Of a DNA stretch of 50,557 nt, positions 15,555-32,703 are shown piece by piece. Each line of letters starts with the position of its first letter. The stretch's first letter is position 1. Made by a program: the position numbers and the translations under genes. Source of the stretch: a virus (Duplodnaviria; Caudoviricetes). Below the pieces are notes generated by a model. That model was given only the letters and a program-made list of their open reading frames with translations. It did not search any database and was not told the DNA's origin. The stretch spans positions 1-50,557 of the IMG/VR virus record IMGVR_UViG_3300020477_000041; one strand, given 5' to 3'.

Positions 15555-15578
15555 CCTTCCATTACTAGGACTTATTTT
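15555..15578 (+). repeat. 24-bp dispersed repeat, copy 1
   Basis: CCTTCCATTACTAGGACTTATTTT; 23/24 identical to 31988..32011. Confidence 0.9.
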
Positions 15579-15581
15579 GCT

Positions 15582-16091
15582 ATGATAGAAATCAACGTAT
15601 CTGAAAAAGTGCTTGACAAAGCGCAAAAGGCAGCAGACACTCTAGGAGTGCTTAACAACTCTATAGCTCAAGGCAGAGGCAACAAAGCTGGCTACGTAGG
15701 TGAATATTGTGTTATGAACTATCTTCTGAAGAATGATCGTGATGTTGTTGAAGATAATACTTATAATTATGATTTTTATATTAATACAAAAGATAACAAT
15801 AAATTAAAGATTGATGTAAAAACTAAAACAACAGGAGTAAGACCTTTAGACTATTACGAATGTTCTGTAGCAGAATACAACACTAAACAGAAATGTGATG
15901 TATATGTGTTTACTAGAATACTTTACAGTCTTAAAAAGATTTGGTTATTGGGCTGGCTACCTAAACAAGATTACTTTAACGAATCAACTTTCTTAAAGAA
16001 AGGAACAGTGGATGAAGATAACGGTTACAAAGTAAAAGCTTCTTGTTACAATCTAAAGATAGATAAACTTAATCTTATGGAAAACTTGTAA
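15582..16091 (+). CDS. PD-(D/E)XK-fold hypothetical nuclease
   Basis: GYVGE ... YDF ... IDVKT motif pattern; start ATG15582 after AGGA. Confidence 0.55.
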   Translation: MIEINVSEKVLDKAQKAADTLGVLNNSIAQGRGNKAGYVGEYCVMNYLLKNDRDVVEDNTYNYDFYINTKDNNKLKIDVKTKTTGVRPLDYYECSVAEYNTKQKCDVYVFTRILYSLKKIWLLGWLPKQDYFNESTFLKKGTVDEDNGYKVKASCYNLKIDKLNLMENL

Positions 16092-16753
16092 TGGAAGTAA
16101 CTTTAATAGACAGTATGGGTTCTGATCTTACAGTAGTTAATGCTGCAAGAGTTTCTTTTAACAAAGAATCAGAATGGGAAATCATAACACCCGCTGGTCC
16201 TGTAGAAAACGTCTTGACAGAAAAGGACGAACGGCTTATAAACTACCTTGCCAAGCACAATCACTGGACGCCATTCGGGCATTGCTTTCTTCAGTTTCGT
16301 ATCAAAGCGCCCATATTTGTAGCTAGACAGTTGGTTAAACATCAAGTAGGATTGGTCTGGAATGAAGTGTCAAGACGATATGTTGACGATAAGCCAGAGT
16401 TTTTTATTCCTGACGTTTGGCGTAAACGGGCTGAAGACAAAAAGCAAGGTTCATCAAAAGATGGTTCTATCTACTACAATACAGCGCCTTTAATGAAATT
16501 TGTTACTGAATGTTATTCTAATATGATTGATTTAGGAATTGCGCCAGAGATGGCAAGAATGATTTTACCACAAAACATGTACACAGAATGGTACTGGAGT
16601 GGTAGTTTAGTTGCTTTTGCTAGAGTGTGTTCTTTAAGGACAAAAGATGACGCACAAAAAGAAACTAGATATATAGCAAACAGTATTAGAATAGAATGTA
16701 ACAACCTTTACCCTGTATCGTGGAAGGCACTTGATGAACATCTTTTATCTTGA
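16091..16753 (+). CDS. thyX: FAD-dependent thymidylate synthase
   Basis: VNAARVSF, HWTPF, ARQLVKHQVGLVWNEVSRRY, PEMARMILP. Confidence 0.95.
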   Translation: MEVTLIDSMGSDLTVVNAARVSFNKESEWEIITPAGPVENVLTEKDERLINYLAKHNHWTPFGHCFLQFRIKAPIFVARQLVKHQVGLVWNEVSRRYVDDKPEFFIPDVWRKRAEDKKQGSSKDGSIYYNTAPLMKFVTECYSNMIDLGIAPEMARMILPQNMYTEWYWSGSLVAFARVCSLRTKDDAQKETRYIANSIRIECNNLYPVSWKALDEHLLS

Positions 16754-17279
16754 CGAAGACCCTATACTTGCAGCGCAGATGCACTGTGACAAACACGTAG
16801 TTAAAATGATCCTTGAATCTGCACAACTTCTTTCAACAGCGCATCGCTTGATAGACGGTGACGAGCTTGCTGATGAACGAGGTCTGTACAAAGCTACTCA
16901 CAAGAACCATCCCTCTTCCAAGTGGGTTCGCGATTCTTCTGAGAATTATGAGTGGTTGTGGAATCTTTACGATCAGCTTCTTAAAGAATACACTTATCGC
17001 TACGATAAAAACCACAAATCAGGTAGACTGTTACATGATTTATGGATGTTTCCGATGAACATACAACACAACGATTTTACGCCACCACCACAATGTATGC
17101 CTGACTACTGCAAAGGCTCTGACACTGTTGAAGCGTATCGTACTTACTACGTTGTTGAGAAATGTGACTTTGCTACTTGGAAAAAGCGTAACAAACCTGA
17201 GTGGTTTAGAATAGAAGAAGTTAACAAAGATAAATCTTTTTGGCACGGGCTAGGGCTACCTGATGAAACACGTACTTGA
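16734..17279 (+). CDS. Pyrimidine-dimer DNA glycosylase-like protein (DenV/Pyr_excise family)
   Basis: MNIFYLD..P..AAQMHCDKHVVKMILESAQLLSTAH, YKATHKNHPS, PPQCMPD, AYRTYY. Confidence 0.8.
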   Translation: MNIFYLDEDPILAAQMHCDKHVVKMILESAQLLSTAHRLIDGDELADERGLYKATHKNHPSSKWVRDSSENYEWLWNLYDQLLKEYTYRYDKNHKSGRLLHDLWMFPMNIQHNDFTPPPQCMPDYCKGSDTVEAYRTYYVVEKCDFATWKKRNKPEWFRIEEVNKDKSFWHGLGLPDETRT

Positions 17280-18981
17280 TATTGAGACTGACCATCTTGA
17301 TGCTAAGAAAATTTGGGTTGTGTGTTCCAAAACAATAGGTAAAAACGAAGTACATGTACACAGAACAAAAGAAGAGTTTTTTTCTCACGGCTTTGATTTT
17401 GATAATGATGTGTTTATCGGACACAATGCTGTAGAGTTTGATTTTCCTGTTCTTAAACGTCTTTGGAATGTAGACATAAAGAAAGCTGAAGATACTTTAA
17501 TTATGTCTAGATTGTTTATACCTGACAGAGAAGGTGGTCACAGTCTTGAGTCTTGGGGTTGTAAACTAGGTATAAGTAAACTCAAGTTTATAGACTTTGA
17601 GAAACTATCAGAAAAGATGGTAGAATATTGTAAACGTGATGTTGAAATAACATACAAAATATATTCTATTCTTACTGAGGAAGGTGCGGACTTCTCGCAA
17701 CAAAGCATTGATCTTGAGCATGAGATTGCTGACATAATATCTAGACAATCTAAGTATGGTTTTTACTTGAACAAACCAAAGACTTTTGAGTTAATAAACA
17801 AGACTCAAAGTAAAGCCAATAGAATAGAGTGTAATATTACTAAGTACTTTCCTCCTAAAGTCAGAGTATTACGTAATGATTTACCTAAGTATACTAAAAA
17901 AGGTACTATGTCTAAGGTAGGTTTGAACGGTTTTGACTATAAGGATGTAGCTGGTCCATTTTGGAAGATAGAGTTTCAACCTTTTAACATTGCTTCACAC
18001 AAACAAATAGTTGAAAGAATGGATGAATCTGGTTGGAAGCCTATTGATTTAACTCCAAAAGGTTCACCGAAAGTAAACGAAACTAATCTTGCTACGTTAC
18101 CAGAATCAGCACCAGAATCAGTAAAGAAACTTTCTGAGTGGAAGATGCTTACTAACAGGTGGAAGACAGCGGAATCTTGGATAGATTCTTTAGGTGATGA
18201 CGGTAGAGTACACGGTAAGGTGTTTACTCTTGGTGCAGTTACAGGTCGTATGACACACAACAATCCTAATATGGCTAATGTAGTAGCTGTAGATAAACCT
18301 TACGGTAAAGAATCAAGGGATTGCTGGTCTTCTCCTAATGATAGCTTTCGTATTGTAGGTATGGACGCTCAAGGTTTAGAATTACGTATGCTTGCACACT
18401 ACATGAACGATGCTGATTACACAAAAGAAGTTCTTTCTGGTGATCCGCATAATGTTACAATGGAAGCGTTAAACATAAATGATCGTAAACTAGCGAAAAC
18501 ATTTTTCTACGCATTCATTTATGGTGCTTCACCTACTAAACTAGGAAGTATTTTAGGTGTTAGTCCAGTGCAAGGTAAGATACTAAAAGACCAGTTTCTT
18601 AGAAATGTACCAAGTTTAGGTGAACTTTTAAGCAAGGTAGAGGATGCAGCTTCACGAGGGTACATTCGCGGTCTGGACGGTCGAAGGCTGTACGTCAGAC
18701 ACGCTCACGCAGCCCTTAACACACTGTTACAGGGTGGTGGAAGTATTGTGTGTAAACAGTGGTCGGTCAACATGGACCGCAGCATACGTTCTGAGAAGCT
18801 GAAGGCTAATCTAGTGAATACGGTCCACGATGAATTGCAGTACGAAAGCCATATGGACGATGCAGAACGATTAGTTGAACTTTCTAGCTTGACAATCAAA
18901 GAAGCAGGACGTATGCTCAAGCTAAGGTTACCAATGGATGCTGAAGCGAAGATTGGAATGTCTTGGGCAGATACACATTAA
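17263..18981 (+). CDS. polA: Family A DNA polymerase (T7 gp5-like) with 3'-5' exonuclease
   Basis: Exo I DIET; motif A DAQGLELR; motif B RKLAKTFFYAFIYGA (Tyr at the 762-equivalent); motif C VHDE. Confidence 0.95.
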   Translation: MKHVLDIETDHLDAKKIWVVCSKTIGKNEVHVHRTKEEFFSHGFDFDNDVFIGHNAVEFDFPVLKRLWNVDIKKAEDTLIMSRLFIPDREGGHSLESWGCKLGISKLKFIDFEKLSEKMVEYCKRDVEITYKIYSILTEEGADFSQQSIDLEHEIADIISRQSKYGFYLNKPKTFELINKTQSKANRIECNITKYFPPKVRVLRNDLPKYTKKGTMSKVGLNGFDYKDVAGPFWKIEFQPFNIASHKQIVERMDESGWKPIDLTPKGSPKVNETNLATLPESAPESVKKLSEWKMLTNRWKTAESWIDSLGDDGRVHGKVFTLGAVTGRMTHNNPNMANVVAVDKPYGKESRDCWSSPNDSFRIVGMDAQGLELRMLAHYMNDADYTKEVLSGDPHNVTMEALNINDRKLAKTFFYAFIYGASPTKLGSILGVSPVQGKILKDQFLRNVPSLGELLSKVEDAASRGYIRGLDGRRLYVRHAHAALNTLLQGGGSIVCKQWSVNMDRSIRSEKLKANLVNTVHDELQYESHMDDAERLVELSSLTIKEAGRMLKLRLPMDAEAKIGMSWADTH

Positions 18982-18995
18982 ATGTAAAAAAAGAC

Positions 18996-19024
18996 TTGAC
19001 AAGACCCGTTTCAGCGTGTATAAT
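18996..19024 (+). promoter_or_regulatory. Perfect sigma70 promoter upstream of ssb
   Basis: TTGACA-17bp-TATAAT with extended -10 TG. Confidence 0.85.
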
Positions 19025-19057
19025 ATTAGAACATTTTACCCTTTAAGGAGAACAAGT

Positions 19058-19531
19058 ATGGATAAAGTTTTGTATGCAACACTCTACTATCCGAGTTTGT
19101 ATGAAGTCAATGATATGTCACAGAAATATGAAGTTACTTTAGGTAATCTTCACAGTGACACAGTTGACGAACTTGAAAACGCTGGCGTTAATGTACGAAT
19201 TGGAGAGGGCAAAAAGGAAGATTTTGAATCTTTTATTGTTGCTCGTTCTAAGTTTCCTATTAAAGTTTTGGATGCAGCAGGAAATCCGTGGAACCCTGAT
19301 GTACGAATAGGCAATGGCACTTATGCCAAAGCTTCTATTCACACTTATCCTTATAACTACAAAGGAAAGAAAGGCGTTGGTATTGGTGTTAATGCAGTTA
19401 TGGTTCTTGAGTTGCAAGAGTACAAGCCTAACAGCATTTCTCTTGATCCAGAGCCACAGTATTTTAACACCAGTGTTCTTGAGTCTTCCAATGTCTTGAG
19501 GACGAATGATCTTGAACAAGAATTGATGTAA
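19058..19531 (+). CDS. ssb: Single-stranded DNA-binding protein (T7 gp2.5-like)
   Basis: Start ATG19058 after AAGGAG; RIGNGT, Y.YKGKKGVGIGVNAVMVLELQEY pattern; follows polA. Confidence 0.75.
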   Translation: MDKVLYATLYYPSLYEVNDMSQKYEVTLGNLHSDTVDELENAGVNVRIGEGKKEDFESFIVARSKFPIKVLDAAGNPWNPDVRIGNGTYAKASIHTYPYNYKGKKGVGIGVNAVMVLELQEYKPNSISLDPEPQYFNTSVLESSNVLRTNDLEQELM

Positions 19532-19542
19532 GTCTAAGTGGG

Positions 19543-19680
19543 GTAACTCTAATCGTGAGTTACAGTATCCATAGTGAGGGTCAGCATTGCTGCGGGAATT
19601 GGATACAAATTGATAGAAGAATCACTCTTCTATTTTTACTAAAAGACTAAGACATCCTGAGTACGATGTAAAACTGCTCA
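19543..19680 (+). ncRNA. Putative structured RNA: three hairpins plus H-type pseudoknot
   Basis: Stems GTAACTC/GAGTTAC, GTATCCA/TGGATAC, ATAGAAGA/TCTTCTAT, and ACATC/GATGT whose loop TGAGTA pairs with TGCTCA. Confidence 0.45.
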
Positions 19681-19690
19681 AGTTTTTTTT

Positions 19691-19767
19691 GGTTCCGTAG
19701 CTCAACAGGATAGAGCAATAGACTTCTAATCTATAGGTTGTAGGTTCAAGTCCTACCGGGACCGCCA
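19691..19767 (+). tRNA. tRNA-Arg (anticodon TCT)
   Basis: Acceptor GGTTCCG/CGGGACC, anticodon stem ATAGA/TCTAT with loop CTTCTAA, T-arm GGTTCAAGTCC, encoded CCA. Confidence 0.95.
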
Positions 19768-19788
19768 AAATGAAAAAGGACTATATAG

Positions 19789-20241
19789 ATGCCTTTAAAA
19801 GACAAAGAACAACGACGAAAATATTATAAAGAATACAATTCGCGTCCAGAAAATAAGGAACGAAAAAAGAAAGAAAGCAAAAGAAGTTATCGCAATTTTG
19901 AAAAACCATTTTTCGTTCAGAATTTTAACACTAAAAAAAGATCGAGCAATAAAAAATTCCCTGACCGAATTTTTAATATAACCTTAGAGTATTTACAGGA
20001 GATATTTCCTGAAGATAAAAAATGTCCTGTATTAAATATTAAATTCAAAGTAAACAATTTTGGCCCCGGTGACCATTCACCAAGTATTGATAGAATTGAT
20101 AATGATAAAGGATATGAAATAGGAAATGTTATTTGGGTTTGTCAGAAAGTTAACAATATTAAAACAAATGCTACGCCAGATGAAATAATAAAAGTAGGAA
20201 AGTTCTACAAAAAGTTACTTGAAGAAAGGTCTTTAGAATGA
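19789..20241 (+). CDS. HNH-like (homing-type) endonuclease
   Basis: CPVL ... SPSIDRIDNDKGYEIGNVIWVC..VN..K; basic N-terminal helix. Confidence 0.75.
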   Translation: MPLKDKEQRRKYYKEYNSRPENKERKKKESKRSYRNFEKPFFVQNFNTKKRSSNKKFPDRIFNITLEYLQEIFPEDKKCPVLNIKFKVNNFGPGDHSPSIDRIDNDKGYEIGNVIWVCQKVNNIKTNATPDEIIKVGKFYKKLLEERSLE

Positions 20242-21098
20242 CAGTTGAGAAAACAATTCATACTTTAATACCTGATATAAAGAATCTTATATCTGAAGGT
20301 AAGACTGATATAGATGAAGATAACATCGACATCTTTCTTAAAGCTATTACTAGTGATTTAAAGAATTTTCTTAATCCTAAAGAGAAGTCTCGTTCTGGTT
20401 ATCTTCGCATGTCCAGCATAGGCAGAGAAGACAGAAAGATTTGGTACGATGTACACAACAAGACACAAGTTAAACATCCTCCAGAGTTACTGTTAAAATT
20501 CTTTTATGGTAATATAGTAGAAGCTTTGATGTTGTTTCTAGCTGCTGAATCAGGACACAAAGTAACTAATCAACAAGAAGAGGTAAAGATAGAAGGCATT
20601 ACAGGTCACATTGACGCTATGATAGATGGTGCTGTTGTTGATGTTAAGTCTGCTTCTACTCGCGCTTTTAGAAAATTTAAAACAAAAACACTTTTAGGAA
20701 ATGATCCTTTTGGATACATTGGTCAGATCAGTGGTTACATGGACGCAAAGAATGTTCTTGAAGGTGGCTTTCTTGCGTTTGACAAAAGCACTGGCGATAT
20801 CACTTTTATGATGGTCGATGAGTTGACGAAAATAAACGCTACGGACAGAATAAAACATTTGAAAGAGGTTATTTCGCTTGACAGTCCACCAGAGAAGTGC
20901 TATGAACCTGTACCTCTCGGAGTTCAAGGGAACTATACATTAAGCACAGGCTGTTCCTATTGTGATTATAAAAATATATGTTGGAAAGGTGCTAATAACG
21001 GTTCTGGACTACGAGTGTTTCAATACTCTAACAGTTTAAAATATTTTACTCACGTTGAAGTAGAACCAAGAGTAGAGGAAGTTACTAATGAGTTATGA
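20238..21098 (+). CDS. PD-(D/E)XK exonuclease (Cas4-like phage family)
   Basis: LRMSSIG, GHIDA, VDVKS, Q..GY, C-terminal CSYCDYKNIC. Confidence 0.8.
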   Translation: MTVEKTIHTLIPDIKNLISEGKTDIDEDNIDIFLKAITSDLKNFLNPKEKSRSGYLRMSSIGREDRKIWYDVHNKTQVKHPPELLLKFFYGNIVEALMLFLAAESGHKVTNQQEEVKIEGITGHIDAMIDGAVVDVKSASTRAFRKFKTKTLLGNDPFGYIGQISGYMDAKNVLEGGFLAFDKSTGDITFMMVDELTKINATDRIKHLKEVISLDSPPEKCYEPVPLGVQGNYTLSTGCSYCDYKNICWKGANNGSGLRVFQYSNSLKYFTHVEVEPRVEEVTNEL

Positions 21099-22719
21099 AA
21101 GTAAGTACGAAAAGACTCACCAACCTTGTGCTGATTGTGGATCAAGTGATGCCTTAACAATCTACAAGGATGGTGGGACTTATTGCTTTTCTTGTGGAAA
21201 AGCTAGTTTGCCAGATAAAGACACTTCTGATATTAGAGTTGTAGAAAACAACAATCTAACTTTAGGAGATGTGTCTGCAATAGAACAAAGAAGAATACAC
21301 AAGGAAACTTGTATTAAGTATAATGTTATGCAGAAGACTGTCAAAGGCAAGTCTGTGCATATCTATCCTTATTACAACTCCGGTGGTTTTCACATTGCAA
21401 GTAAGATACGATTTGTTCCTAAACATTTTTTGATAGAAGGACACATTGCTAAGACAGGTTTCTTTGGTCAACAAGCTTTTGGTAAAGGTGGAAAATACAT
21501 TACCATTTGCGAAGGCGAGATAGATGCTTTGTCAGCTTATCAAATGTTTGACAGCAAGTGGCCGTTTATATCTGTTAGAACAGGTGCAGGATCAATTGAG
21601 AAAGATATCAACGATAATTATGATTTTCTTAACAAGTTTGAGAACATAATTATATGTTTTGATAATGACGATGCAGGAAAGATTGCAGCAAAAGTAGCTT
21701 CTGAGTTACTTGCTCCTAAAGCTTCTGTTGTTCGTATGAGGTACAAAGACCCTAACGAGTATTTGTTAAAAGGTAAGGTAGCTGAGTTTAAACAGGATTG
21801 GTGGAACGCTGAAAGATACACACCGGAAGGTATTGTGTCAGGAGATAGTCTTTGGGATGAGTTGTTAAAAGGACCAGAGAAGGCTATTGTTCAGTATCCT
21901 TATAATGGCATTAACAAAGCTACTTATGGTTTAAGAAGCGGAGAGCTTGTTTGTATATGTGCAGGAACAGGTATTGGTAAATCTAGTTTTATGAGAGAAA
22001 TATGTTATCATATTATATCTCACACAGATAACAATGTTGGCCTTTTGTTTCTTGAAGAACCTATCAGAACTACAGCTAAAGCTTTGATGGGCGTTCACTC
22101 AAGCAAGAACTATCATCTTCCTAATGCTGAATACACTATGGAAGAGTACAAAGATGCTTATGACAACACTGTAGGAAGTGGAAGAATATTCTTCTTTGAT
22201 CATTTTGGTTCTAACGCAATTGAGAACATTACAAACAGAATAAGGTACATGGTAAAGATACTTAAATGTAAGTACATTGTTCTTGACCACATATCTATTC
22301 TTGTCAGTTCTCAAGAGTTTGGAATGGATGAAAGAAGAAACATAGATCAGTGTATGACTAAGCTACGTACTCTTGTTCAAGAGCTTGACATTTGTCTTAT
22401 CATTGCAAGCCATCTAAGACGAACTCAAGACGGTTCACATGAAGAAGGTAAAGAGTTGTCATTGAACCACCTTAGAGGATCGCATTCAATTGGTCAGCTA
22501 AGTGACATTGTACTTGGGTTGGAACGCAACGGACAAGCTGATTGTCCTGTTGAAAGAAACACAACAAAAGTACGTGTCATTAAGAATAGGTTCAGTGGAA
22601 TAACTGGTCTTTGTAGTACTTTGTTCTACGATACAAATACAGGAAGACTGAATGAAGTTTCTTCTGAAACCAATATTGCAAACCATGTGAACGATGTTAA
22701 AGATAACGAGTTAATGTAA
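21088..22719 (+). CDS. Primase-helicase (T7 gp4-like)
   Basis: Zn ribbon CADC..YCFSC; TOPRIM EGEIDA, DND.AG; Walker A AGTGIGKS; LDHI; LRGS.SIGQLSD; KNRFSG. Confidence 0.95.
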   Translation: MSYESKYEKTHQPCADCGSSDALTIYKDGGTYCFSCGKASLPDKDTSDIRVVENNNLTLGDVSAIEQRRIHKETCIKYNVMQKTVKGKSVHIYPYYNSGGFHIASKIRFVPKHFLIEGHIAKTGFFGQQAFGKGGKYITICEGEIDALSAYQMFDSKWPFISVRTGAGSIEKDINDNYDFLNKFENIIICFDNDDAGKIAAKVASELLAPKASVVRMRYKDPNEYLLKGKVAEFKQDWWNAERYTPEGIVSGDSLWDELLKGPEKAIVQYPYNGINKATYGLRSGELVCICAGTGIGKSSFMREICYHIISHTDNNVGLLFLEEPIRTTAKALMGVHSSKNYHLPNAEYTMEEYKDAYDNTVGSGRIFFFDHFGSNAIENITNRIRYMVKILKCKYIVLDHISILVSSQEFGMDERRNIDQCMTKLRTLVQELDICLIIASHLRRTQDGSHEEGKELSLNHLRGSHSIGQLSDIVLGLERNGQADCPVERNTTKVRVIKNRFSGITGLCSTLFYDTNTGRLNEVSSETNIANHVNDVKDNELM

Positions 22720-22720
22720 C

Positions 22721-23116
22721 ATGCCTATTTATGTTCAACAAAAAGTTCTTCCAGAAGATGTCATCAATAACAGTAACGTAATGTTTGCGTATCTGGAAAA
22801 TGACAAAAAATCTGGAGGAACTGCGTTAGCTATTTTTCTTAGAGATTCTGAACAAGGAATAGGTTTAAGATTAAAGAAAGCTCACGGTGATCAGATAGGA
22901 TGTTACTGGGACGATAAGGAGTTCAGATACAACACAGATAAAATGAAAGAAGATATAGGAAGTTTGGAAGATTTTTTAAAGAACAACGGAACTGCTGTAT
23001 TTGCAAAAGGAGATTTTGATTCCTATAATGAAGATAGGTTTCTTGAGATATCTCCACGTTCTTACAAGTACTTTAAAAATAGAATAACCAAACTTCTTCG
23101 TATCTACAGACCGTAG
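22721..23116 (+). CDS. Hypothetical protein
   Basis: ORF packed within the operon. Confidence 0.55.
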   Translation: MPIYVQQKVLPEDVINNSNVMFAYLENDKKSGGTALAIFLRDSEQGIGLRLKKAHGDQIGCYWDDKEFRYNTDKMKEDIGSLEDFLKNNGTAVFAKGDFDSYNEDRFLEISPRSYKYFKNRITKLLRIYRP

Positions 23117-23117
23117 C

Positions 23118-23507
23118 ATGGCTAAAAAATATAAAGACTATAGGTTTCGCTCTTTGTTTGAAAGAGACTTTGCTCGTGATCTTGAAGATAGAAATATAGA
23201 TTACGAGTACGAAACTAAGAAACTGTCTTGGATTCCAAAACCTAGAGTTTATACTCCTGACTTTTATCTTCCAGACTATGATCTTTATATAGAAACTAAA
23301 GGAAGGTTTACGTCTTCTGACAGAGTAAAACATCTTCGTGTAGCAGATCAACATCCTGACATTGATCTTAGGTTTGTGTTTATGACACCGTTTAACAAAC
23401 TTTCAAGATCATCTAAAACGACGTATGGTGATTGGTGTACTAAGAATGGTTTTACATTTTCTAAAGAAAGGATACCAAAAGAATGGATGAAGAAGAAGAA
23501 GAGATAA
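23118..23507 (+). CDS. Holliday-junction endonuclease (T7 endonuclease I-like)
   Basis: FRSLFE, YTPDF, IETKGRF, HPDIDLRFVF, TTYGDWC. Confidence 0.9.
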   Translation: MAKKYKDYRFRSLFERDFARDLEDRNIDYEYETKKLSWIPKPRVYTPDFYLPDYDLYIETKGRFTSSDRVKHLRVADQHPDIDLRFVFMTPFNKLSRSSKTTYGDWCTKNGFTFSKERIPKEWMKKKKR

Positions 23508-23872
23508 GAGAAATTCTTGAAGATGAGAGAAAGGATTTAAAGCCTAACAGAGTGTATATTATTCTTGAAGATATTGAAAAAAATCCTTTAAGAGAGAACG
23601 CACTTTTTACAGAATTAGATGAGGAAGAAGAAGTTGATAATGGTTATTTCAATGTAAAGGTTATTGATACAACTAAAAATAGTGATCCAAGAGAATCAAT
23701 GTCTTTTATAATTTCTCAAGGACTCTTTTGTATACTTCAAGAATCTTTGATGGAAGTTTATACGAAAGGTTCTCAATATATTCTTAATCAAATGGGTGAT
23801 AATGTTGTAGACCTTTTACCCAATTTATTGAACAAAGCGAAAGGACCGCCGAATGGCAGCGGATACCATTAA
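23483..23872 (+). CDS. Acidic hypothetical protein
   Basis: ORF overlapping its neighbours in the operon. Confidence 0.55.
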   Translation: MDEEEEEIREILEDERKDLKPNRVYIILEDIEKNPLRENALFTELDEEEEVDNGYFNVKVIDTTKNSDPRESMSFIISQGLFCILQESLMEVYTKGSQYILNQMGDNVVDLLPNLLNKAKGPPNGSGYH

Positions 23873-24071
23873 TCATCCTAAACATTACAATATGCAAGGG
23901 CTAGAAGCTATTGATATCATTCAAGCTTCTATGACTGATGAGGAGTTCAGAGGTTACCTAAAAGGTAACATTTTAAAGTATCTTATAAGATACAAACATA
24001 AGGGAAAACCAGAAGAGGACTTGTTAAAATCTTCTTGGTATCTTAACAAACTTACGGAGGGAGTAAAATAA
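23853..24071 (+). CDS. DUF3310 protein (T7 gp1.7-like nucleotide kinase family)
   Basis: INHPKHY, EAIDII, GNILKYLIRY..KG...EDL.K..WYL. Confidence 0.85.
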   Translation: MAADTINHPKHYNMQGLEAIDIIQASMTDEEFRGYLKGNILKYLIRYKHKGKPEEDLLKSSWYLNKLTEGVK

Positions 24072-24073
24072 AT

Positions 24074-25984
24074 ATGTTGCCAACAGATTATCAAAACTTT
24101 ATACATCTATCTCGGTACTCACGATGGATAGATCAAGAAGAAAGAAGAGAAAATTGGAAAGAAACTATTGATAGGTATCTGTCATTTATGTCAGACCACC
24201 TTAAAGACAATTACAACTATACTATTCCAGATGATATGTATTCTGAAATAGAAACTTCTATGTTAAATCTTGAAGTTCTAGGTTCAATGAGAGCATTGAT
24301 GACTGCTGGTCCTGCTCTTAAAAGAGAGAACATTGCAGGGTATAACTGTTCTTATCTTCCTGTAGATTCACCACGATCTTTTGATGAGTGTTTGTACATT
24401 CTTATGAATGGAACTGGTGTAGGTTTTTCAGTAGAACGACAGTATGTCAACAAACTCCCTACCATTCCTGATACTGACTTTGAAAGTTCTGATGATCTTA
24501 TTTCTGTTGCAGATTCTAAAGAAGGTTGGGCAAGAGGGTTACGTGATCTTATTTCTTTTTTATATACCAATCGTATTCCTAAAATAGATACGTCAAAGAT
24601 TAGACCGGCTGGTGCTAGACTTAAAACTTTTGGTGGACGAGCTTCTGGACCTGAACCTCTTGTTGATTTGTTTGACTTTACAATTAACACGTTTAAGAAA
24701 GCTAAAGGTAGAAAGTTAACGTCAATAGAATGTCACGACATTATGTGTAAGATTGGACAGGTTGTTGTTGTAGGTGGAGTGCGTAGGTCTGCACTTATAT
24801 CTTTGTCAAACTTAACCGATGAACGTATGCGTATGGCTAAGAGCGGAGAATGGTGGATAGATAATCCTCAAAGAGCTTTGGCTAACAACTCTGTTTGTTA
24901 CACAGAGAAACCTGACATTGGTATCTTTATGAAAGAATGGTTGTCACTGTATGAAAGTAAAAGTGGTGAACGTGGAATCTTTAATAGAGTTTCTGCAAAA
25001 GAAAAAGCTTCTTCTAATGGTAGAAGAGATGGTGATATAGATTTTGGAACTAATCCTTGTTGTGAGATTATTCTTAGACCTTATCAGTTTTGTAATTTGT
25101 CAGAAGTTGTTTGTCGCCATGATGATACTATAGATACATTGTTAGATAAGGTTAGGATTGCTACAATTCTAGGAACATTTCAAGCTACGTTAACTAATTT
25201 TAATTATCTTCGTAAAAGGTGGAAAGATACAACAGAAGAAGAGAGATTGCTTGGTGTGTCACTTACAGGAATTATGGATTGTCCTGCTGTTTACAATGCG
25301 ACAGAAGAAGAACTGCAATGGCTAAAAGAAATGGCAGTTGTTGCTAACATAAATTTGTCAGCCGACATAGGGATTAATCAAAGCACCGCTGTCACTTGTG
25401 TCAAACCATCAGGCACAGTGTCACAGTTGGTTGATGCTGCTTCTGGTATTCACGCAAGACACAACGATTACTTTATTCGTACTGTAAGAGGAGACAACAA
25501 AGACCCGTTGACTGAGTTTATGCGTGATATGAATATTCCAAACGAACCTGACTTTACGTCACCGGATAGTGTCACTGTATTTTCATTTCCTATGAAAAGT
25601 CCAGACAACGCAATTTGTAGAAATGATATGTCAGCGTTAGAACAGCTAGAGTTGTGGTTGAAGATTGCAAACAATTATTGTGAACACAAACCTTCTGTCA
25701 CTATTTCTGTCAAAGAACACGAATGGCTTGAAGTAGGTTCTTGGTGTTGGAATAACTTTGGAGCATTGTCAGGAATATCTTTTCTACCATTCTCTGAACA
25801 CACATACAAACAAGCACCTTATCAAGATATAGACAAGAATATGTATCTTGATTTGTCAACTAAAATGCCTTTGTCAATTGATTGGGATAAACTTCAACAA
25901 TATGAAAAAGGCGACACTACAACAGGAACGCAAGAACTAGCATGTACTGGTGGAGTTTGTGAAATTGTAGACATAGGAGCGTAG
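24074..25984 (+). CDS. nrdJ: Class II (adenosylcobalamin-dependent) ribonucleotide reductase
   Basis: GYNCSY, GGVRRSALI, TNPCCEI, QFCNLSE, KPSGTVSQL, C-terminal ELACTGGVCEI; no small-subunit gene present. Confidence 0.9.
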   Translation: MLPTDYQNFIHLSRYSRWIDQEERRENWKETIDRYLSFMSDHLKDNYNYTIPDDMYSEIETSMLNLEVLGSMRALMTAGPALKRENIAGYNCSYLPVDSPRSFDECLYILMNGTGVGFSVERQYVNKLPTIPDTDFESSDDLISVADSKEGWARGLRDLISFLYTNRIPKIDTSKIRPAGARLKTFGGRASGPEPLVDLFDFTINTFKKAKGRKLTSIECHDIMCKIGQVVVVGGVRRSALISLSNLTDERMRMAKSGEWWIDNPQRALANNSVCYTEKPDIGIFMKEWLSLYESKSGERGIFNRVSAKEKASSNGRRDGDIDFGTNPCCEIILRPYQFCNLSEVVCRHDDTIDTLLDKVRIATILGTFQATLTNFNYLRKRWKDTTEEERLLGVSLTGIMDCPAVYNATEEELQWLKEMAVVANINLSADIGINQSTAVTCVKPSGTVSQLVDAASGIHARHNDYFIRTVRGDNKDPLTEFMRDMNIPNEPDFTSPDSVTVFSFPMKSPDNAICRNDMSALEQLELWLKIANNYCEHKPSVTISVKEHEWLEVGSWCWNNFGALSGISFLPFSEHTYKQAPYQDIDKNMYLDLSTKMPLSIDWDKLQQYEKGDTTTGTQELACTGGVCEIVDIGA

Positions 25985-25986
25985 AA

Positions 25987-26073
25987 ATGATTTCAACAAT
26001 AATAATTAGTACTATTTGTTTTTTGTCAGTTCCAGTAATTTTGTCAACCTTATACCTTTTGTCAAACATTTAA
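25987..26073 (+). CDS. 28-aa hydrophobic micropeptide
   Basis: SD AGGAG; MISTIIISTICFLSVPVILSTLYLLSNI; overlaps the TGTCA array, so could be spurious. Confidence 0.35.
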   Translation: MISTIIISTICFLSVPVILSTLYLLSNI

Positions 26074-26074
26074 C

Positions 26075-26308
26075 ATGTCAACCGATAACATAGAAGCTTT
26101 GTTGTCACAGATTACGGTAACGCTGACGCAAGATAGTACTATTGTTGTAAAGCAAAGAGTAACGGATATAGGAAATTTGTTATCAGTATTCGAAGAAGAC
26201 ATGCCAGACTATCCTTATATCATACCATTGAAAAACTACATAATAGACTTACAAACTGTAACAAAAGATTATCTTGATAGTTTGAATAAAATATCTATAT
26301 CTGATTAA
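26075..26308 (+). CDS. Hypothetical protein
   Basis: 77-aa ORF before the hairpin. Confidence 0.5.
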   Translation: MSTDNIEALLSQITVTLTQDSTIVVKQRVTDIGNLLSVFEEDMPDYPYIIPLKNYIIDLQTVTKDYLDSLNKISISD

Positions 26309-26333
26309 ACTTATATCTGGTTTAAATAAAATT

Positions 26334-26373
26334 AAGGCTCGGTGCATTTTGTCTATTGACTGCACCGGGCCTT
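26334..26373 (+). terminator. Stem-loop ending the replication module
   Basis: AAGGCTCGGTGCA/TGCACCGGGCCTT 13-bp stem followed by TCGTTTATT. Confidence 0.6.
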
Positions 26374-26424
26374 TCGTTTATTGAATAGCATTCGATACCA
26401 CAAACCGCAGAAAAAGGGCCAAAA

Positions 26425-26613
26425 ATGCGCACACATACTAAAACCGAATACACTCGCCGCGCCGATGGTAAATGGAACAAATGGGAACTGCACCCCGCTG
26501 ATGTTTTCGGCGATTATAGCCACGTTGAGGATTGCAGCAATCGCAATTCTTATATCCAGAAAGTTTGGATTCTTACTGGTGTTTTCGATTGGGAGATTAC
26601 CGTTGAGAACTGA
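26425..26613 (+). CDS. Hypothetical protein (62 aa)
   Basis: SD AAAGGG before ATG. Confidence 0.5.
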   Translation: MRTHTKTEYTRRADGKWNKWELHPADVFGDYSHVEDCSNRNSYIQKVWILTGVFDWEITVEN

Positions 26614-26884
26614 TAATAAGTTTAAATTTATTGTTGAAAGTAAACATCCTCAGCATTTAGATTTTCATTTTTATGCTTCGTCAGGTGCAATTTGGGCTGT
26701 TGATAGTGACGTGGATAAACTAATTTATGATATGAAGAAAGATGGTTATAGTTTTGGTTTGTGGTTTATTCCACACAGTATCAAAACAACTTATGATATA
26801 AAGTTATTTGCTCCTGTTATAGACGGAGCTTTATATCTAGGATATTATGAGTTGCAGCAAAACCTTAACAATGAGGTAAAATAA
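26603..26884 (+). CDS. Hypothetical protein (3' part of ORF 26381..26884)
   Basis: TTG26603 after GGGAG; overlaps the upstream stop. Confidence 0.45.
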   Translation: MRTDNKFKFIVESKHPQHLDFHFYASSGAIWAVDSDVDKLIYDMKKDGYSFGLWFIPHSIKTTYDIKLFAPVIDGALYLGYYELQQNLNNEVK

Positions 26885-27261
26885 TGCGCGAGTGGGATAG
26901 CCTTACGTTTACTTATAACGTGATATCAGGCGAAGCTTTCCCTAGTGTCGAAACAGCGGAGAAATTTAAACAATGGCGTAAAGATATAAGCGAATGTGAA
27001 GTCTATACTTCCATTTCGCTTTACTATTTAGATTTTATATATGACGTAATGGGTGAACTGGAACGCCAGCGTGATATACTAGAAAAAGAAGAAGAGGATA
27101 ACTTTAACAAACCGCTTTCACGTTATCTATGGGAAAAATTATTGGAAAGTAATTATACTATAATGCCTAAATGGTATTACAACAAAATCGAATGCGATAG
27201 GCGGTATGATGAATACTGCCACGCATTTAATCGTAATAATAGGAATACGGAGAACGATTAA
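26884..27261 (+). CDS. Hypothetical protein
   Basis: TAATG coupling and SD GAGG. Confidence 0.55.
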   Translation: MREWDSLTFTYNVISGEAFPSVETAEKFKQWRKDISECEVYTSISLYYLDFIYDVMGELERQRDILEKEEEDNFNKPLSRYLWEKLLESNYTIMPKWYYNKIECDRRYDEYCHAFNRNNRNTEND

Positions 27262-27262
27262 T

Positions 27263-27859
27263 ATGCTTAAAATAAGCACAATGTCTGGAAAGCTTAAAGG
27301 CTTTAAAGCTTTAAACACAAACACACTATCAAATGATTTTTGTGTTAAGATGTACAATAGCGGAAAGAATGACGTTATTTGTACATTTTGTTATAGTCAC
27401 CGAATGCTTAATACTTATCGCAAGTCTTGTGTCGATCCGTGGCAGAATAACAGTGATCTACTTAGTAAATCCTTATTAAAAGATTATCAAATACCACGTA
27501 TCACAGAAAGTGAATTTAGGTTTCACGGTCATGGTGAATTGATAAACAGAACACATTTAAGGAATTTAGCGTTAATTGCAGAACACAATTCTCATTGTAA
27601 CTTTGCGTTGTGGACAAAGCGCAAAAATATTGTTCGTGAAGTGTTTGATGATCAGGAACGACCGTTTAACTTAATTCTAATTTATTCTAATCCTGTTATT
27701 GATAAAGTTATGAGAAAGCCACCAAAACGATTTGACAAAGTGTTCAACAATGTCAATAGTCCTACTGATGGCGAGAATTGCACAGGTCAAAAGTGCAAAG
27801 ATTGTTTAGCTTGTTATGAGTTTAATGATACCAACGTAATCATCGAAAGGAAAAAGTAA
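27263..27859 (+). CDS. Gp88-like Cys-rich phage protein
   Basis: Start ATG27263 after GGAG; ICTFCYS, FRFHGHGEL, FALWTKR, C-terminal CTGQKCKDCLACY. Confidence 0.6.
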   Translation: MLKISTMSGKLKGFKALNTNTLSNDFCVKMYNSGKNDVICTFCYSHRMLNTYRKSCVDPWQNNSDLLSKSLLKDYQIPRITESEFRFHGHGELINRTHLRNLALIAEHNSHCNFALWTKRKNIVREVFDDQERPFNLILIYSNPVIDKVMRKPPKRFDKVFNNVNSPTDGENCTGQKCKDCLACYEFNDTNVIIERKK

Positions 27860-27862
27860 GTA

Positions 27863-28264
27863 ATGGAAACACAAACAACTGAGTTTTTTACAGGACGCGA
27901 CGAGCTTCAAAAGCTAGGAGCTTTTAATAATAATATCCAAAACTGGATAGACTTACTTGGCAATAATATCTTCACGGTACAATTTGTCAAAGAAAATGGT
28001 TCTCTGAGAACTATAACCGGACGCTTGAATTGTCATAAGTTTACGAAATCAGGTAAACCACGAAACAGAGTTAATGATGAAACTTTGTGTATGTTTGATA
28101 TGAAGTATCGTTGTTATCGTAATGTCAACATTAATCGTGTTGTTACTTTGTCTTGTCATAATGTTGTGTTTAGGTATAGCACCCATCACGTTCTACGAAC
28201 TTTGGCTGATAAACACGGTCCTTTTTACACAAACATTGTCAATCACAAGGATTGTCAACAATAA
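27863..28264 (+). CDS. SH3/WYL_2-like beta-barrel phage protein
   Basis: FTVQFVKENGSLRTITGRL ... MFDM....YRNVN. Confidence 0.6.
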   Translation: METQTTEFFTGRDELQKLGAFNNNIQNWIDLLGNNIFTVQFVKENGSLRTITGRLNCHKFTKSGKPRNRVNDETLCMFDMKYRCYRNVNINRVVTLSCHNVVFRYSTHHVLRTLADKHGPFYTNIVNHKDCQQ

Positions 28265-28296
28265 GTTTTGTCAACCATAAAGTTTTGTCAACCATA
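28237..28296 (+). repeat. Array of four TTGTCAA at 16-17 bp spacing, including a perfect 17-bp tandem (aagttttgtcaaccata x2)
   Basis: TGTCA at 28237, 28253, 28269, 28286; tandem copies 28263-79 and 28280-96. Confidence 0.85.
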
Positions 28297-28563
28297 ACAT
28301 ATTTTCAAAAAGTGAAAATAGAACACAACACAAGCCACCCTAGCCATCGCTCCGACGCTGGCTCGACCGTCGAGAGAAATTCCTGTTTTTTGAATAATTC
28401 TCGGCGGTCGATTTTATTCTTATTATTGGAATGCCTAGCCTCAACTGTGGCGATTGGCGTTATCTCGATTTTGTGGCTTGCGCTGATTTTCTTTTGGTTT
28501 ATATTCGTATCAGTCGTGGCAATGGCTGCGATATTCAAGCACTAGATAAGGAAAAAATACGTT

Positions 28564-29721
28564 ATGTCTCACGAAATAGAAACAATGGCTTTCGTAGGTG
28601 AAACACCGTGGCACGGTTTGGGCCGTTCTATAGATTATGTCGATGCTGGTGATATCGAAGGCTTTCAGATTGAAGCCGGTTTGGATTGGGAGGTGCGGCT
28701 AGATAACAACAGGAAAGCAGATAACACGCCCATCGAAGGTTCGTTCTATATAGAGCGTATCAGCGACGGTAGCGTTCTAGGTAAATCAGTGACAAACCTG
28801 TACAAGCCTGTGCAAAATGCTGCGCTTTTTGATTTCTTTCGCCCCTACGTCGATAGCGGCAAGCTTCACCTCCACACTGCCGGTTCGTTGTTTGGTGGTC
28901 GTAAGGTTTGGGTTATGGTGTCGCCAATGCGTGGCTTTACGCTTGATGGCAACGACGACGTAAGCAGTAACGCTATATTTACGTTGGACCATACCGGACT
29001 GCGTGCCAACAGTATGATGCTGTCGCCTGTACGCGTTGTGTGTAACAATACGTGGACGCTGGCAAAGGAACTCGCTAGCGATGAAGTCAAGCACAACCAT
29101 AAAGTCGTGTTTGATCGTGAAGTTATGGATCGCGCTCTCAATTATTTCAACGCCGCGTTTGATGATTTTGAAAAAGAAGCAATCGCGATGGCCCGCCGTG
29201 TCTTAACTGGTGAGGAAGAAATAGAGTTTTTCCAACGTGTTTTTGGCGGAAAAGAAAAAGAGGTTGACGGTAAAATAATAAGATCACGAGCAGTTCAAAA
29301 AGCTCTTGCAATGTCGCGAGGTAAGGAGCTTCCAAAAACCAACACTAAAACCGGTCCAACTAAAGCAGAAACACAAAGCAAGCTTGATGCTTTAACGCGA
29401 TTAATGGAAGAGGCCGCACAATCTGGCAAGGTGTTAGATACCGATCAACTTGCGAGTATCACCGGCAAAGAAGATGACGATAACACCGACAGCGGTCGCG
29501 TGATCAATCCCGGCCACGATTTGGAAAGTACTCGGCGTGACGATGGCGTTACAGTCTGGGGAGCCTTCCAGACTGTGACAAACATAGTCGATCACAATCC
29601 GGTTAAGGCTTATAAATCAGACGATCACCGTGCAGATAGAGCATTATACGGCGCTCCTGCCGGTCAACGTGATGCTAAATCAATCGCGCTTCAGGCTGCG
29701 CGGGAATTGGTAGCGGCATAG
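28564..29721 (+). CDS. DUF932/DUF945-family protein
   Basis: MAFVGETPWHGLG, AGLDWEV, YKPVQN, TAGSLFGGRKVW, PVRVVCNNT, TVWGAFQTVT...DH. Confidence 0.85.
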   Translation: MSHEIETMAFVGETPWHGLGRSIDYVDAGDIEGFQIEAGLDWEVRLDNNRKADNTPIEGSFYIERISDGSVLGKSVTNLYKPVQNAALFDFFRPYVDSGKLHLHTAGSLFGGRKVWVMVSPMRGFTLDGNDDVSSNAIFTLDHTGLRANSMMLSPVRVVCNNTWTLAKELASDEVKHNHKVVFDREVMDRALNYFNAAFDDFEKEAIAMARRVLTGEEEIEFFQRVFGGKEKEVDGKIIRSRAVQKALAMSRGKELPKTNTKTGPTKAETQSKLDALTRLMEEAAQSGKVLDTDQLASITGKEDDDNTDSGRVINPGHDLESTRRDDGVTVWGAFQTVTNIVDHNPVKAYKSDDHRADRALYGAPAGQRDAKSIALQAARELVAA

Positions 29722-31383: not shown

Positions 31384-31413
31384 AGCCCGGCATGTTCGCC
31401 GGGTTCTTTTTTT
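31384..31413 (+). terminator. Intrinsic terminator ending the early module
   Basis: AGCCCGGC-atgttc-GCCGGGTT followed by C and T7. Confidence 0.85.
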
Positions 31414-31892
31414 GCCTGATAGGCTGTGCTGGCTGGTGATATATCCGCAAGGTGCTGGTTTGATTGCATAAGGCTTTATTGGTGGTGTGTTCTTGGTAGT
31501 GCGCCACCCCGCCCCAGACAGTGCTTGTTTTCAAACTTCATAATTTTGTTGTCAGTATAAACAAATCATGCCTGCGTGCATCTGCGTGCGTATAAGAGCT
31601 GTATTGTGTGGAAAGCTTGGCATTCTCGCTATATAGACTATCAAGATTTATCGCCGATGACTTTATGTCAATTTTGTTGAACAAAATGAGAACAAACTAG
31701 GCTGGGGAGGGATGGGCCACTGGGGGGGCTCCGTATACTTATATACATAACCAAGAATTTTATTATAATTTCAAAGAGATACATGTAAAAATGCTTATAA
31801 ACTACTATCAAGCCTCTACTCAGAGCTAATTAGTACTAATTAGTATACCTTGTATGATATGTATATACTACCTCCGCGCAGGAGTACCTCCT

Positions 31893-31921
31893 ATTATACA
31901 CCTGAAATAGCATCTTGTCAA
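31893..31921 (-). promoter_or_regulatory. Perfect leftward sigma70 promoter with no obvious downstream ORF
   Basis: Minus strand TTGACA-agatgctatttcaggtg-TATAAT (17 bp). Confidence 0.75.
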
Positions 31922-31987
31922 GTAAAAAATGCACTAAAGTTAATTTTTTTTATTTCTTTATGTAAAATCATCACACTCCTCCCCCCT

Positions 31988-32011
31988 CCTTCCATTACTA
32001 GGACATATTTT
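31988..32011 (+). repeat. 24-bp dispersed repeat, copy 2
   Basis: CCTTCCATTACTAGGACATATTTT. Confidence 0.9.
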
Positions 32012-32145
32012 ATTTTCTCTCTCTCTGTGTGTTAAAATCTACAAAATGTTAGAAAATACGTAAGATTTAGCTTGTTAAAGCATTACTATCTTTTCTTTTA
32101 TAATCAACAACTTATAAAAAATATTAACTTTTATTTATTTTTTAC

Positions 32146-32174
32146 TTGACAAAGTGCTAAATCATTGTTATAAT
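32146..32174 (+). promoter_or_regulatory. Perfect rightward sigma70 promoter heading the morphogenesis module
   Basis: TTGACA-aagtgctaaatcattgt-TATAAT (17 bp) with AT-rich upstream element. Confidence 0.85.
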
Positions 32175-32247: not shown

Positions 32248-32703
32248 TTGATTCAACATTATTTTCCATCTTTCACACACACACACACAAACGCAATGGA
32301 GATTATCATTTTTAATTTTTTTACAACTTTCACAAAAAGGATAATTTTATTTTTATTTTTATCTTGTGTTATTATGTTAGCTACCAACACTGTAGCTGCT
32401 GAAAGTTGGAAGAAAAAGGATATCATACACTCCAGCGTTGTGTGTTTAAATGAAGAGACAATTCTTGAAGTAGCACGACACGACTCTGAAAGCTTAGAAG
32501 GCACTGTATCTTTTATACGAAGAATGATTATAGAAGGACGGTGTGTGTCCTTTATGCAACCTGTAGAATTTCAAGTTGACGATACTATTCTTAATTACAC
32601 AGATTATTCTAAAAATAAAAGTGCAGTGCTACGTCTCAATCATCCTTATTCCGACAACAACCCATTTGGATTTGTAATTGCTTTGCATAAGCCAAGCGTA
32701 TGA
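32248..32703 (+). CDS. Exported/periplasmic hypothetical protein (start TTG32248 or ATG32296)
   Basis: KR-hydrophobic-VAA|ES signal-peptide pattern; SD GAGGG before TTG. Confidence 0.55.
   Translation: MIQHYFPSFTHTHTNAMEIIIFNFFTTFTKRIILFLFLSCVIMLATNTVAAESWKKKDIIHSSVVCLNEETILEVARHDSESLEGTVSFIRRMIIEGRCVSFMQPVEFQVDDTILNYTDYSKNKSAVLRLNHPYSDNNPFGFVIALHKPSV

Follow-up and report, generated by a model that had tools for sequence, protein, structure and literature searches.

Why should the gene of a conserved enzyme be crowded, on one strand, with a single five-letter word? The question is raised by a stretch of viral DNA of 50,557 nucleotides (hereafter the window), the whole of IMG/VR record IMGVR_UViG_3300020477_000041, in which TGTCA accumulates on the plus strand of nrdJ, the gene of a cobalamin-type ribonucleotide reductase, and of the DNA to its right. 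An earlier note, made from the letters alone, had listed 18 plus-strand copies between 25098 and 26107, had seen no TGACA among them, and took them for a second code, perhaps one of primase sites, overlying the enzyme. Every one of the 18 is present in the sequence; the interval is indeed free of TGACA, the nearest minus-strand copies being at 24913 and 27733; and the assumed background of about 1 per kb is close to the ~1.2 per kb per strand that shuffles give. Judged by the sequences compared here, the copies belong to a real, strongly selected, position-bound and strand-specific motif zone.

The excess is local, since over its full length the window has no surplus of TGTCA: it holds 103 copies (55 plus, 48 minus) against 119.6±10.2 expected for both strands in shuffles. 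The plus/minus counts per kb are 6/1 at 24001-25000, 13/0 at 25001-26000 and 5/0 at 26001-27000. Ranked among all strand-specific pentamers, TGTCA makes the third strongest 1-kb cluster, and the top two are coding tandem repeats at 41.3-42.2 kb. The enrichment in nrdJ survives the codon shuffling that had been suggested as a check, with 19 copies observed against 4.22±1.53, and a maximum of 11, in 5000 within-gene synonymous shuffles. For the 3' part of the gene the figures are 13 against 1.93±1.22. The reverse complement TGACA is depleted (1 against 4.03 expected). The gene uses 19 of the 26 sites at which TGTCA is synonymously possible, the highest usage of 943 pentamers (median 7%), with a z of 9.5 against ~4 for the next unrelated word. 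The plus-strand count does climb towards the end of the gene, from 6 to 13 per kb, but the gradient as it had been stated was not confirmed, because the second kb mostly just offers more possible sites. The copies occur in all three codon phases of coding sequence; therefore, the signal lies in the nucleic acid and not in the peptide. In a codon alignment of nrdJ with its relatives, the window picks the motif-forming synonym where the relatives vary, and at least five sites (24189, 24445, 25356, 25854 and 25872) arose by amino-acid replacement at variable positions.

The zone does not end with nrdJ. A second cluster, overlooked by the earlier note, lies at 27751-28290 and has nine copies, the last four forming an array at 28237-28290. 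The full zone thus runs from 24180 to 28290 (~4.2 kb) and holds 33 plus-strand and 2 minus-strand copies of TGTCA. The tightly spaced array described at the end of the first cluster is there, with spacings of 18, 18, 16 and 27 bp; it sits in a 90-bp spacer 3' of nrdJ and spans the start codon of the open reading frame (ORF) at 26075. The extended motif of the arrays is TTTTGTCA(A/G)C, often then CATAA, and TTTGTCAAC has four occurrences in the genome, none of them on the minus strand or outside the zone. Most of the 18 copies first listed (13) read TTGTC or GTGTC, as had been said. Between the two clusters are ~1.65 kb without any copy, and the three ORFs of this gap use 0/1, 0/4 and 1/10 of their possible sites (1/15). 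The WYL_2 ORF uses 6 of 9, and the DUF932 gene of the window uses none of 12.

Conservation of these sites was followed in six close relatives that share the gene order of the window (L203, L204, L245, L246, L247 and L256), found by searches with DUF932 and the primase; they probably stand for about three lineages. Their nrdJ genes have 92-94% nucleotide identity to that of the window, and they keep its sites in 18/19 cases (L203), 19/19 (L204), 19/19 (L246), 17/17 (L247), 18/19 (L256) and, in the partial gene of L245, 4/4. Where most or all of the gene is available, which is so in five relatives, changes affect 0-1 of 85-95 bases inside sites against 128-150 of 1660-1816 bases outside, and at third codon positions the counts are 0-1 of 33-37 in sites against 96-117 of 548-600 elsewhere (16-20%). 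The Fisher values for third positions are 0.0004-0.015 in these five; that of the partial L245, 0.32, is uninformative. Motif-laden nrdJ is also found in contigs of four marine metagenome runs from four studies. Array 1 varies in copy number among the relatives. In one metagenome variant, 63 bp of it are swapped for 15 bp with the word still present, and its spacer is missing in L007, where nrdJ overlaps the small ORF. To go by these substitution counts, the TGTCA copies are under purifying selection.

A neutral origin, in which the copies are a by-product of codon or codon-pair usage, of mutational bias or of a recent transfer of nrdJ from a word-rich genome, is hardly credible against this background. 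It is true that the codons in question are commoner in early and replication genes than in structural ones. However, the within-gene shuffles preserve codon usage and still give 4.2 copies where 19 are observed, there is a deficit of the reverse complement (1 against 4.0), non-coding arrays are built of this word too, the sites are conserved above the synonymous background, and several were made by amino-acid changes at variable positions. The saturation of DUF932 in another lineage, described below, contradicts it as well. With the enrichment surviving codon shuffling and the sites conserved far beyond the synonymous background, the idea of a second code overlying a conserved enzyme holds up.

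The earlier note had also proposed a check of whether the cluster keeps one genomic position whatever gene lies there, and in the relatives it does. An IMG/VR pattern scan for three spaced TTGTCAA copies gave 114 stretches, mostly unrelated tandem repeats, and three of the matches (L140, L130 and L164, which are genomes G001, G002 and G003) are relatives with an array between a WYL_2 homolog and DUF932. In G001, a genome of 52.9 kb that is 100% complete by CheckV, the entire replication module (14093-24078) has the opposite orientation to its counterpart in the window (15537-26308; loci L199-L201). The module points one way in the window, G004 and G008 and is inverted in G001, G005 and G006; the relatives are otherwise syntenic. 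In G001, nrdJ (81% protein identity) is far from the zone and is unenriched: it has 3 sense copies where 2.0 are expected. The forward TTTGTCAA copies of that genome, 12 in number, all lie in 24110-27542, beside the GP88, WYL_2 and DUF932 genes, and there is 1 reverse copy elsewhere. Three G001-type nrdJ genes (74% DNA identity) keep 1/6, 2/17 and 1/19 of the sites of the window, and in all 63 of the other full-length nrdJ relatives (59-83% identical) there are just 1-8 copies each, none with the strand bias of the window. Since nrdJ is unenriched in module-inverted relatives and the arrays are kept beside GP88/DUF932, the signal is tied to position.

The DUF932 side of the zone gives the same answer from the other direction. 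Of the DUF932 loci at 45-74% identity, all 8 that extend beyond the 5' end of the gene (L203-L210) show an array of 2-6 copies there; L211, at 43% identity, includes no DNA upstream of DUF932; and no array was found at any of 17 DUF932 loci at <=39% identity (L212-L228). The array lies ~240-390 bp upstream of DUF932 in 10 related records, seven of these eight loci included, and ~710-760 bp upstream in L206, with a unit spacing across relatives of 12, 15, 16, 17, 18, 20 or 24 bp. The whole genomes G004, G005 and G006 each have a single zone, the zones compared here contain 15-37 oriented copies, and a motif-poor gap of 1.2-1.9 kb recurs in G001, L208 and L209. In the G005/G006 lineage, the sites run to the right of array 2 into DUF932, which is saturated: 11 of 14 possible sites are used in L209 (2.5 expected), 7 of 13 in L207 (1.7) and 5 of 14 in L205 (1.3). 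None of 400 shuffles reaches the observed count in any of the three, and the sites are partly common to them. The DUF932 gene of G001 uses 1 of 8. On this comparison, the zone holds an address beside the GP88/DUF932 block, and the gene lying there becomes recoded. Among the nrdJ relatives, no comparable other word was found at this place. The coordinates of the features in the window are collected in Table 1.

Table 1. Coordinates of the motif zone and of the surrounding features in the window.
Feature	Position	Strand	Remarks
Analysed record	1-50,557		Whole IMG/VR virus record; linear, 96% complete (CheckV)
Structural genes	33-50.5 kb, on into 1-13.4 kb		Terminase, portal and capsid protein included
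Replication module	15.5-26.3 kb (15537-26308)		T7/cobavirus-like
gp4-like primase-helicase	21088-22719	+	phrog_239, E 2e-175; candidate motif reader
nrdJ (cobalamin-type ribonucleotide reductase)	24074-25984	+	phrog_367, E 1e-175; 19 sense TGTCA, 1 TGACA
Array 1	26024-26107	+	TGTCA at 26024, 26042, 26060, 26076, 26103
Small ORF, 77 aa	26075-26308	+	Homologs in L203, L204, G001; conserved 3' of nrdJ in relatives
Motif-poor gap, three ORFs	26381-27859	+	Includes GP88-family gene 27206-27859 (Pfam PF17338)
Second ramp	27751-28236	+	TGTCA at 27751, 27985, 28031, 28123, 28154
WYL_2-domain ORF	27863-28264	+	Holds four of the five second-ramp copies
Array 2	28237-28297	+	Four TTGTCAA(C) copies, 16-17 bp spacing, two identical 17-nt units
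Spacer, array 2 to DUF932	28298-28563	.	Non-coding, repeat-rich, GC-rich
DUF932/TIGR03299 gene	28564-29721	+	Pfam and NCBIfam; constant right-hand neighbour of array 2; 0 TGTCA here

Some further repeats occur near these addresses. Between the TTGTCA array and the DUF932 promoter, L205, L207 and L210 have a second direct-repeat family of three 9-12-nt units with CTGCTAGC, and G001 has a pentanucleotide run of about ten GGCTC units (L140 4085-4145). In relatives, the spacer between array 2 and DUF932 has a terminator hairpin, simple repeats and a host-type promoter. In the window, a terminator-like hairpin can be read from the letters at about 26336-26382, beyond the 77-aa ORF, although the scan that gave the promoter-like sites did not call it. 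TGTAG forms clusters of 9-12 per kb inside the nrdJ genes of L025, L045, L059 and L080 (67-68% identical). The arrays were considered as inversion sites for the flip of the module and rejected for this role, as the other breakpoint (13.4-15.6 kb) is free of copies in inverted orientation.

If the address and not the gene is what counts, is the signal read in DNA or in RNA? The sense transcripts would carry UUUUGUCA(A/G)C copies that could bind an RNA-binding protein or a small RNA and set stability, decay or translation, or act as a sponge. The word is on the sense strand of every strongly enriched gene (nrdJ, WYL_2, DUF932 and small ORFs), its use of all three codon phases places the signal in the nucleic acid, and array 2 stands directly before a terminator hairpin in several relatives, which makes it a 3' untranslated region. 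The arrays are unstructured as single strands: they fold no better than shuffles (z -0.7 to +1.4), which gives no hairpin-type single-strand signal. We nevertheless think a message-level signal unlikely. The orthologous nrdJ of G001-type genomes is unenriched, so that the signal follows the genomic place and not the message, and G001 and G002 keep plus-oriented copies upstream of a predicted plus-strand promoter. L208 has a DNA polymerase gene on the minus strand, and opposite it the word is enriched on the plus strand, thus in antisense (10 against 4.4±1.6, P 0.0018), which is weak evidence because replication genes often use sense TGACA anyway (21 of 79 possible sites).

The best single candidate for a reader, which we put forward tentatively, is the T7 gp4-type primase-helicase of the phage, for which the copies would be recognition sites forming a priming or loading zone. 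The gp4-like enzyme on which the earlier note relied is indeed encoded, 1.4 kb upstream of nrdJ, and has a Zn-ribbon (11-37), Helic-prim_T7_N (60-118), Toprim (138-228) and DnaB_C (272-514). The TGTCA copies would be independent, orientation-specific recognition sites, read by this enzyme on the plus strand when that is single-stranded; the plus strand does not serve as template for the transcription of these operons, and for a fork moving rightward it is the lagging-strand template. The enzyme would then favour single-stranded TTTTGTCAAC over TGACA or GAC variants. A dense run of sites would make priming or helicase loading nearly certain in the region, and the zone would mark a replication start or the place that needs a final primer. 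Sites of low efficiency would be effective through their sum, so that selection would act on number and density and not on exact spacing. The variable spacing and copy number of the arrays argue for independent sites and not for a phased protein array, and a DNA-level reading is favoured because the signal follows a genomic address and not a particular message.

The comparison with T7 supplies most of the detail. In the parts of the studies available to us, the T7 primase site is given as 5'-(G/T)(G/T)GTC-3', binding was best when an A followed it immediately, and A/T richness on its 3' side was an advantage (PMC12839067), while G/T-rich flanks raised binding (PMC6136900). TGTC is in 33 of 33 sites of the zone, and the full pentamer fits 22 of 33. 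The arrays read TTTT-GTC-A-ACCATAA, and 6 of the 8 positions of the array flank AACCATAA are A/T. The A after TGTC is fixed by the definition of the word, yet 33 of the 40 TGTC in the zone continue with A. The likeness to T7 extends over the enzyme architecture (Zn ribbon, Toprim, DnaB-type helicase), the T-rich 5' flank, the T7-type core, the favoured 3' A and the reading of one strand. T7 itself (NC_001604.1, L243) has its densest 400-bp cluster of plus-strand primase sites at the right end (39538-39930, 8 against 1.87 expected) and its densest minus-strand cluster at the left end (245-591, 9 against 2.15), where it falls within the array of heptamer repeats that adjoins the terminal repeat. 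A second minus-strand cluster (5670-6027, 7 sites) spans the primary-origin promoters. At either end of T7, the cluster is on whichever strand has its 3' terminus there. The differences are also clear. Here there are 33 copies in 4.2 kb, taking up to 73% of possible coding sites, against a 4-5-fold enrichment in T7, and they are written into coding sequence; the T7 clusters sit at the ends and the primary origin, whereas here there is one zone; and this phage is without a recognisable RNA polymerase of its own. The primase clade is common to all four zone-bearing whole genomes compared (58-94% identity), and two zoneless cobaviruses are at 28-29%.

Several observations weigh against the primase as reader. 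One third of the copies (11 of 33) depart from the T7 pentamer by reading ATGTC or CTGTC, and array positions 9-10 are AG, CA or CT, matching none of the TA, TG, GA or GG given as the preference of T7 there (its "-10 element" dinucleotides) in the part of PMC12839067 available. Specificity differs among gp4 relatives, with plant Twinkle using another site according to the available part of PMC5737085. A lagging-strand role cannot be general because the plus strand has few TGTCA outside the zone; at 34-50.5 kb it uses 1 of 136 possible sites. The motif-poor 1.6-kb gap separating the two clusters has no explanation if the sites are for priming. In the first kb of nrdJ 6/11 possible sites are used, in its second kb 13/16 (Fisher 0.21), so there is no significant gradient along the gene, and the curve of GC skew does not bend at the zone. 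The clade of the primase travels with DUF932, SSB, exonuclease and DUF7831, so that its co-occurrence with the zone does not point to the primase in particular. The T7 clusters are only 4-5-fold enriched and were examined after the idea was formed. Finally, G001 has two or three copies in a divergent promoter region, upstream of a predicted plus-strand promoter, and these look more like the site of a double-strand DNA binder.

That last observation leads to the possibility that the copies are double-stranded sites throughout, bound by an early or middle regulator or by a nucleoprotein organiser like phi29 p6 that coats or regulates the early GP88/DUF932 region; their orientation would then reflect head-to-tail binding or promoter polarity. 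The arrays are intergenic, at operon ends and starts, and those of G001 lie both in the divergent promoter region and directly 3' of a predicted promoter (L140 609, 625, 832). The zone always accompanies the same gene block, and the first gene beside it in G001 and G002 belongs to the phrog_624 "DNA binding protein" family. We give this a minor share of belief, as 19 selected sites across the 1.9 kb of nrdJ and 5-11 in DUF932 are unlike operators, the spacing of 12-24 bp lacks helical phasing, and the motif overlaps no convincing promoters in the window. Among individual proteins, GP88 was rejected as reader, its homologs in the cultured phages CRP-5 and Greip having no arrays nearby, and so was WYL_2, which is missing from G006 and has no match in the L205 or L209 loci, where arrays persist. 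The searches of PDB sequences returned nothing for GP88, phrog_624 and WYL_2, and an Atlas search returned the GP88 family alone. AlphaFold models of GP88 (pLDDT 55) and DUF932 (pLDDT 44) were too poor for fold comparison. A literature search for DUF932, judged by its listing and the openings of abstracts, showed no functional paper. The Pho box, a PhoB site with a similar motif and direct repeats in 11-bp phasing, was also tried and rejected: the 32 intervals from one site to the next include none of 11 or 22 bp.

Sites on double-stranded DNA could also serve the host polymerase. Read on the minus strand, each of the 18 plus-strand TTGTCA of the zone gives a perfect first hexamer of a sigma-70 promoter, and a few copies have a fair second hexamer (27990, 26065). 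That the copies are minus-strand TTGACA decoys for host RNA polymerase, as the earlier note suggested, or antisense promoters for it, found little support and is very improbable. Only about four minus-strand promoter-like sites of the zone pair a TGACA-containing first hexamer with a second at 16-18 bp (27990, 26065, 26029 and 25701), two of them with perfect first hexamers. Of the 33 copies, 15 are not preceded by T and so are not the hexamer, and the conserved flanks (a 5' T-run, 3' AAC or AGC) exceed a -35 element.

The place of the zone in the genome raises one more alternative, that of an end or packaging signal read by something other than the primase: a pac-like recognition sequence of terminase, arrays flanking a terminal repeat as in T7, or a Chi-like stop for an exonuclease of the host that comes in from a DNA end lying right of the arrays. 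The copies form short direct repeats of one orientation, and their density in the window ends abruptly at each array, the spacer to the right of array 2 is repeat-rich and non-coding, T7 has same-orientation heptamer arrays adjoining its terminal repeat, and in the cobavirus ICBM2 terminal repeats adjoin the early region. We consider this rather unlikely all the same. Contig k-mer depth is not doubled between the arrays (4.2-11.8 against flanks of 10.3 and 11.8 for X4; 6.7-13.1 against 9.6 and 6.5 for X5), and contigs bridge both arrays, so that a 2-kb terminal repeat between them is improbable; these depths come from assembled contigs, in which a short terminal repeat could escape. The gene of the terminase small subunit is 4.8 kb away, the continuation of sites into DUF932 in the G005/G006 lineage removes the abrupt right edge, and there is no matching minus-strand cluster for the other end.

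How, then, does the zone compare with known oriented or repeated elements? Iteron arrays flank the initiator gene in plasmid and phage replicons such as P1 or F, and here, similarly, two same-orientation direct-repeat clusters flank a gene block of ~2 kb, near replication genes in some relatives. The units here are short (12-20 bp), their spacing is unconserved, and copies are scattered through neighbouring genes. An origin of the iteron type, with repeats of ~17-22 bp, regular spacing and an adjacent initiator, does not fit: the spacing is 12-24 bp with 2-6 copies, and no initiator family was found for the neighbouring ORFs in Pfam, PHROGs or NCBIfam. Chi and KOPS are short oriented words that occur genome-wide in bacterial chromosomes and are read by host enzymes; Chi is over-represented in the host genome, points along with replication and is recognised by RecBCD or AddAB. 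They are like the present word in that number and polarity, and not exact position, are under selection, and in that synonymous choice allows words inside genes; they differ in that the word here is confined to one phage zone of 4-8 kb. There are also cis sites embedded in phage genes, such as lambda ori in gene O and P22 pac in gene 3, and like them the zone is a DNA signal overlapping protein-coding sequence. Theirs are single compact sites in a fixed gene, whereas here there are tens of copies and the gene that hosts them changes with gene order. In the main paper on the phage group (PMC9038755), as covered by a term search of that one paper, we did not find the zone described; the terms "promoter" and "terminal repeat" are absent from the text searched, and "origin" never means a replication origin in it.

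The boldest proposal is one that we regard as possible but doubtful: a new polar "zone code" in which a family-specific reader needs ~20-35 same-strand copies within a few kb at a fixed address, and selection on dosage recodes whichever essential gene lies there, nrdJ after the inversion of the module and DUF932 elsewhere.

The genome around the zone is that of a nearly complete uncultured marine podovirus, with HMO-2011-type structural genes and a T7/cobavirus-like replication module. Its capsid protein is 67% identical to that of Pelagibacter phage HTVC033P (HMO-2011-type), the nearest cultured relative by capsid. The early region of HTVC033P (MZ892993.1, L202; 475-6268) shows the opposite word, with 20 plus-strand TGACA against 4 TGTCA in 6 kb, and several of these TGACA stand exactly at annotated gene starts. 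The replication module of the window contains thymidylate synthase, the phrog_624 "DNA binding protein", a family A polymerase, a gp2.5-like single-stranded DNA-binding protein (SSB), endonuclease VII, tRNA-Arg, a Cas4-type exonuclease, the gp4-like primase-helicase, an endonuclease, a kinase and nrdJ; the tRNA-Arg (anticodon TCT) is at 19691-19767. Within the module, the primase-helicase gene itself has 6 sense TGTCA against 0.7 expected, and its G001 ortholog has 5 against 1.1, with just 2 positions in common. The replication genes carry about twice the sense TGACA expected from synonymous shuffles, 21 against 10.5 at 15.5-24 kb of the window, and the excess is also present in three G001 genes (20.8-24.1 kb; 11 against 6.1), independent of the orientation of the module. 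A polarity switch at 24 kb was considered as an origin signature and rejected, since this sense TGACA excess travels with the module in both orientations.

Outside the module, 31400-32172 is a non-coding AT-rich stretch of 770 bp that follows a strong terminator (31384-31405). It has perfect consensus sigma-70-type promoters at 31921 (minus) and 32146 (plus) and several near-perfect ones, metagenome contigs diverge or break there, and a masked repeat lies at 32264-32371; it may be a control region or a terminus region. Coding tandem repeats are found at 1035-1277, 1527-1603, 41832-42255 and 49353-49782. Their units are of 15 and 18 nt in an 801-aa ORF, GCAGCA/AGAAGC runs in the ORF at 40965-42797, and a 207-nt unit repeated twice in the tail-fibre ORF.

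For the phages that carry it, the zone is an unusually clean natural case of a non-protein code laid over essential genes, in which the same gene is plain or saturated according to gene order and the sites are then frozen. The plain and saturated forms of nrdJ let selection for a DNA (or RNA) signal be measured against the synonymous background, and the zone provides a testable cis-element for uncultured marine phages of an abundant group. Should the gp4-type primase-helicase prove to be its reader, the zone would represent the first origin or priming region set by the statistical density of primase sites and not by a discrete origin. Motif density could then predict replication start zones and primase specificity from metagenomes, which would open a sequence-only route to the replication start zones of uncultured T7-like phages.

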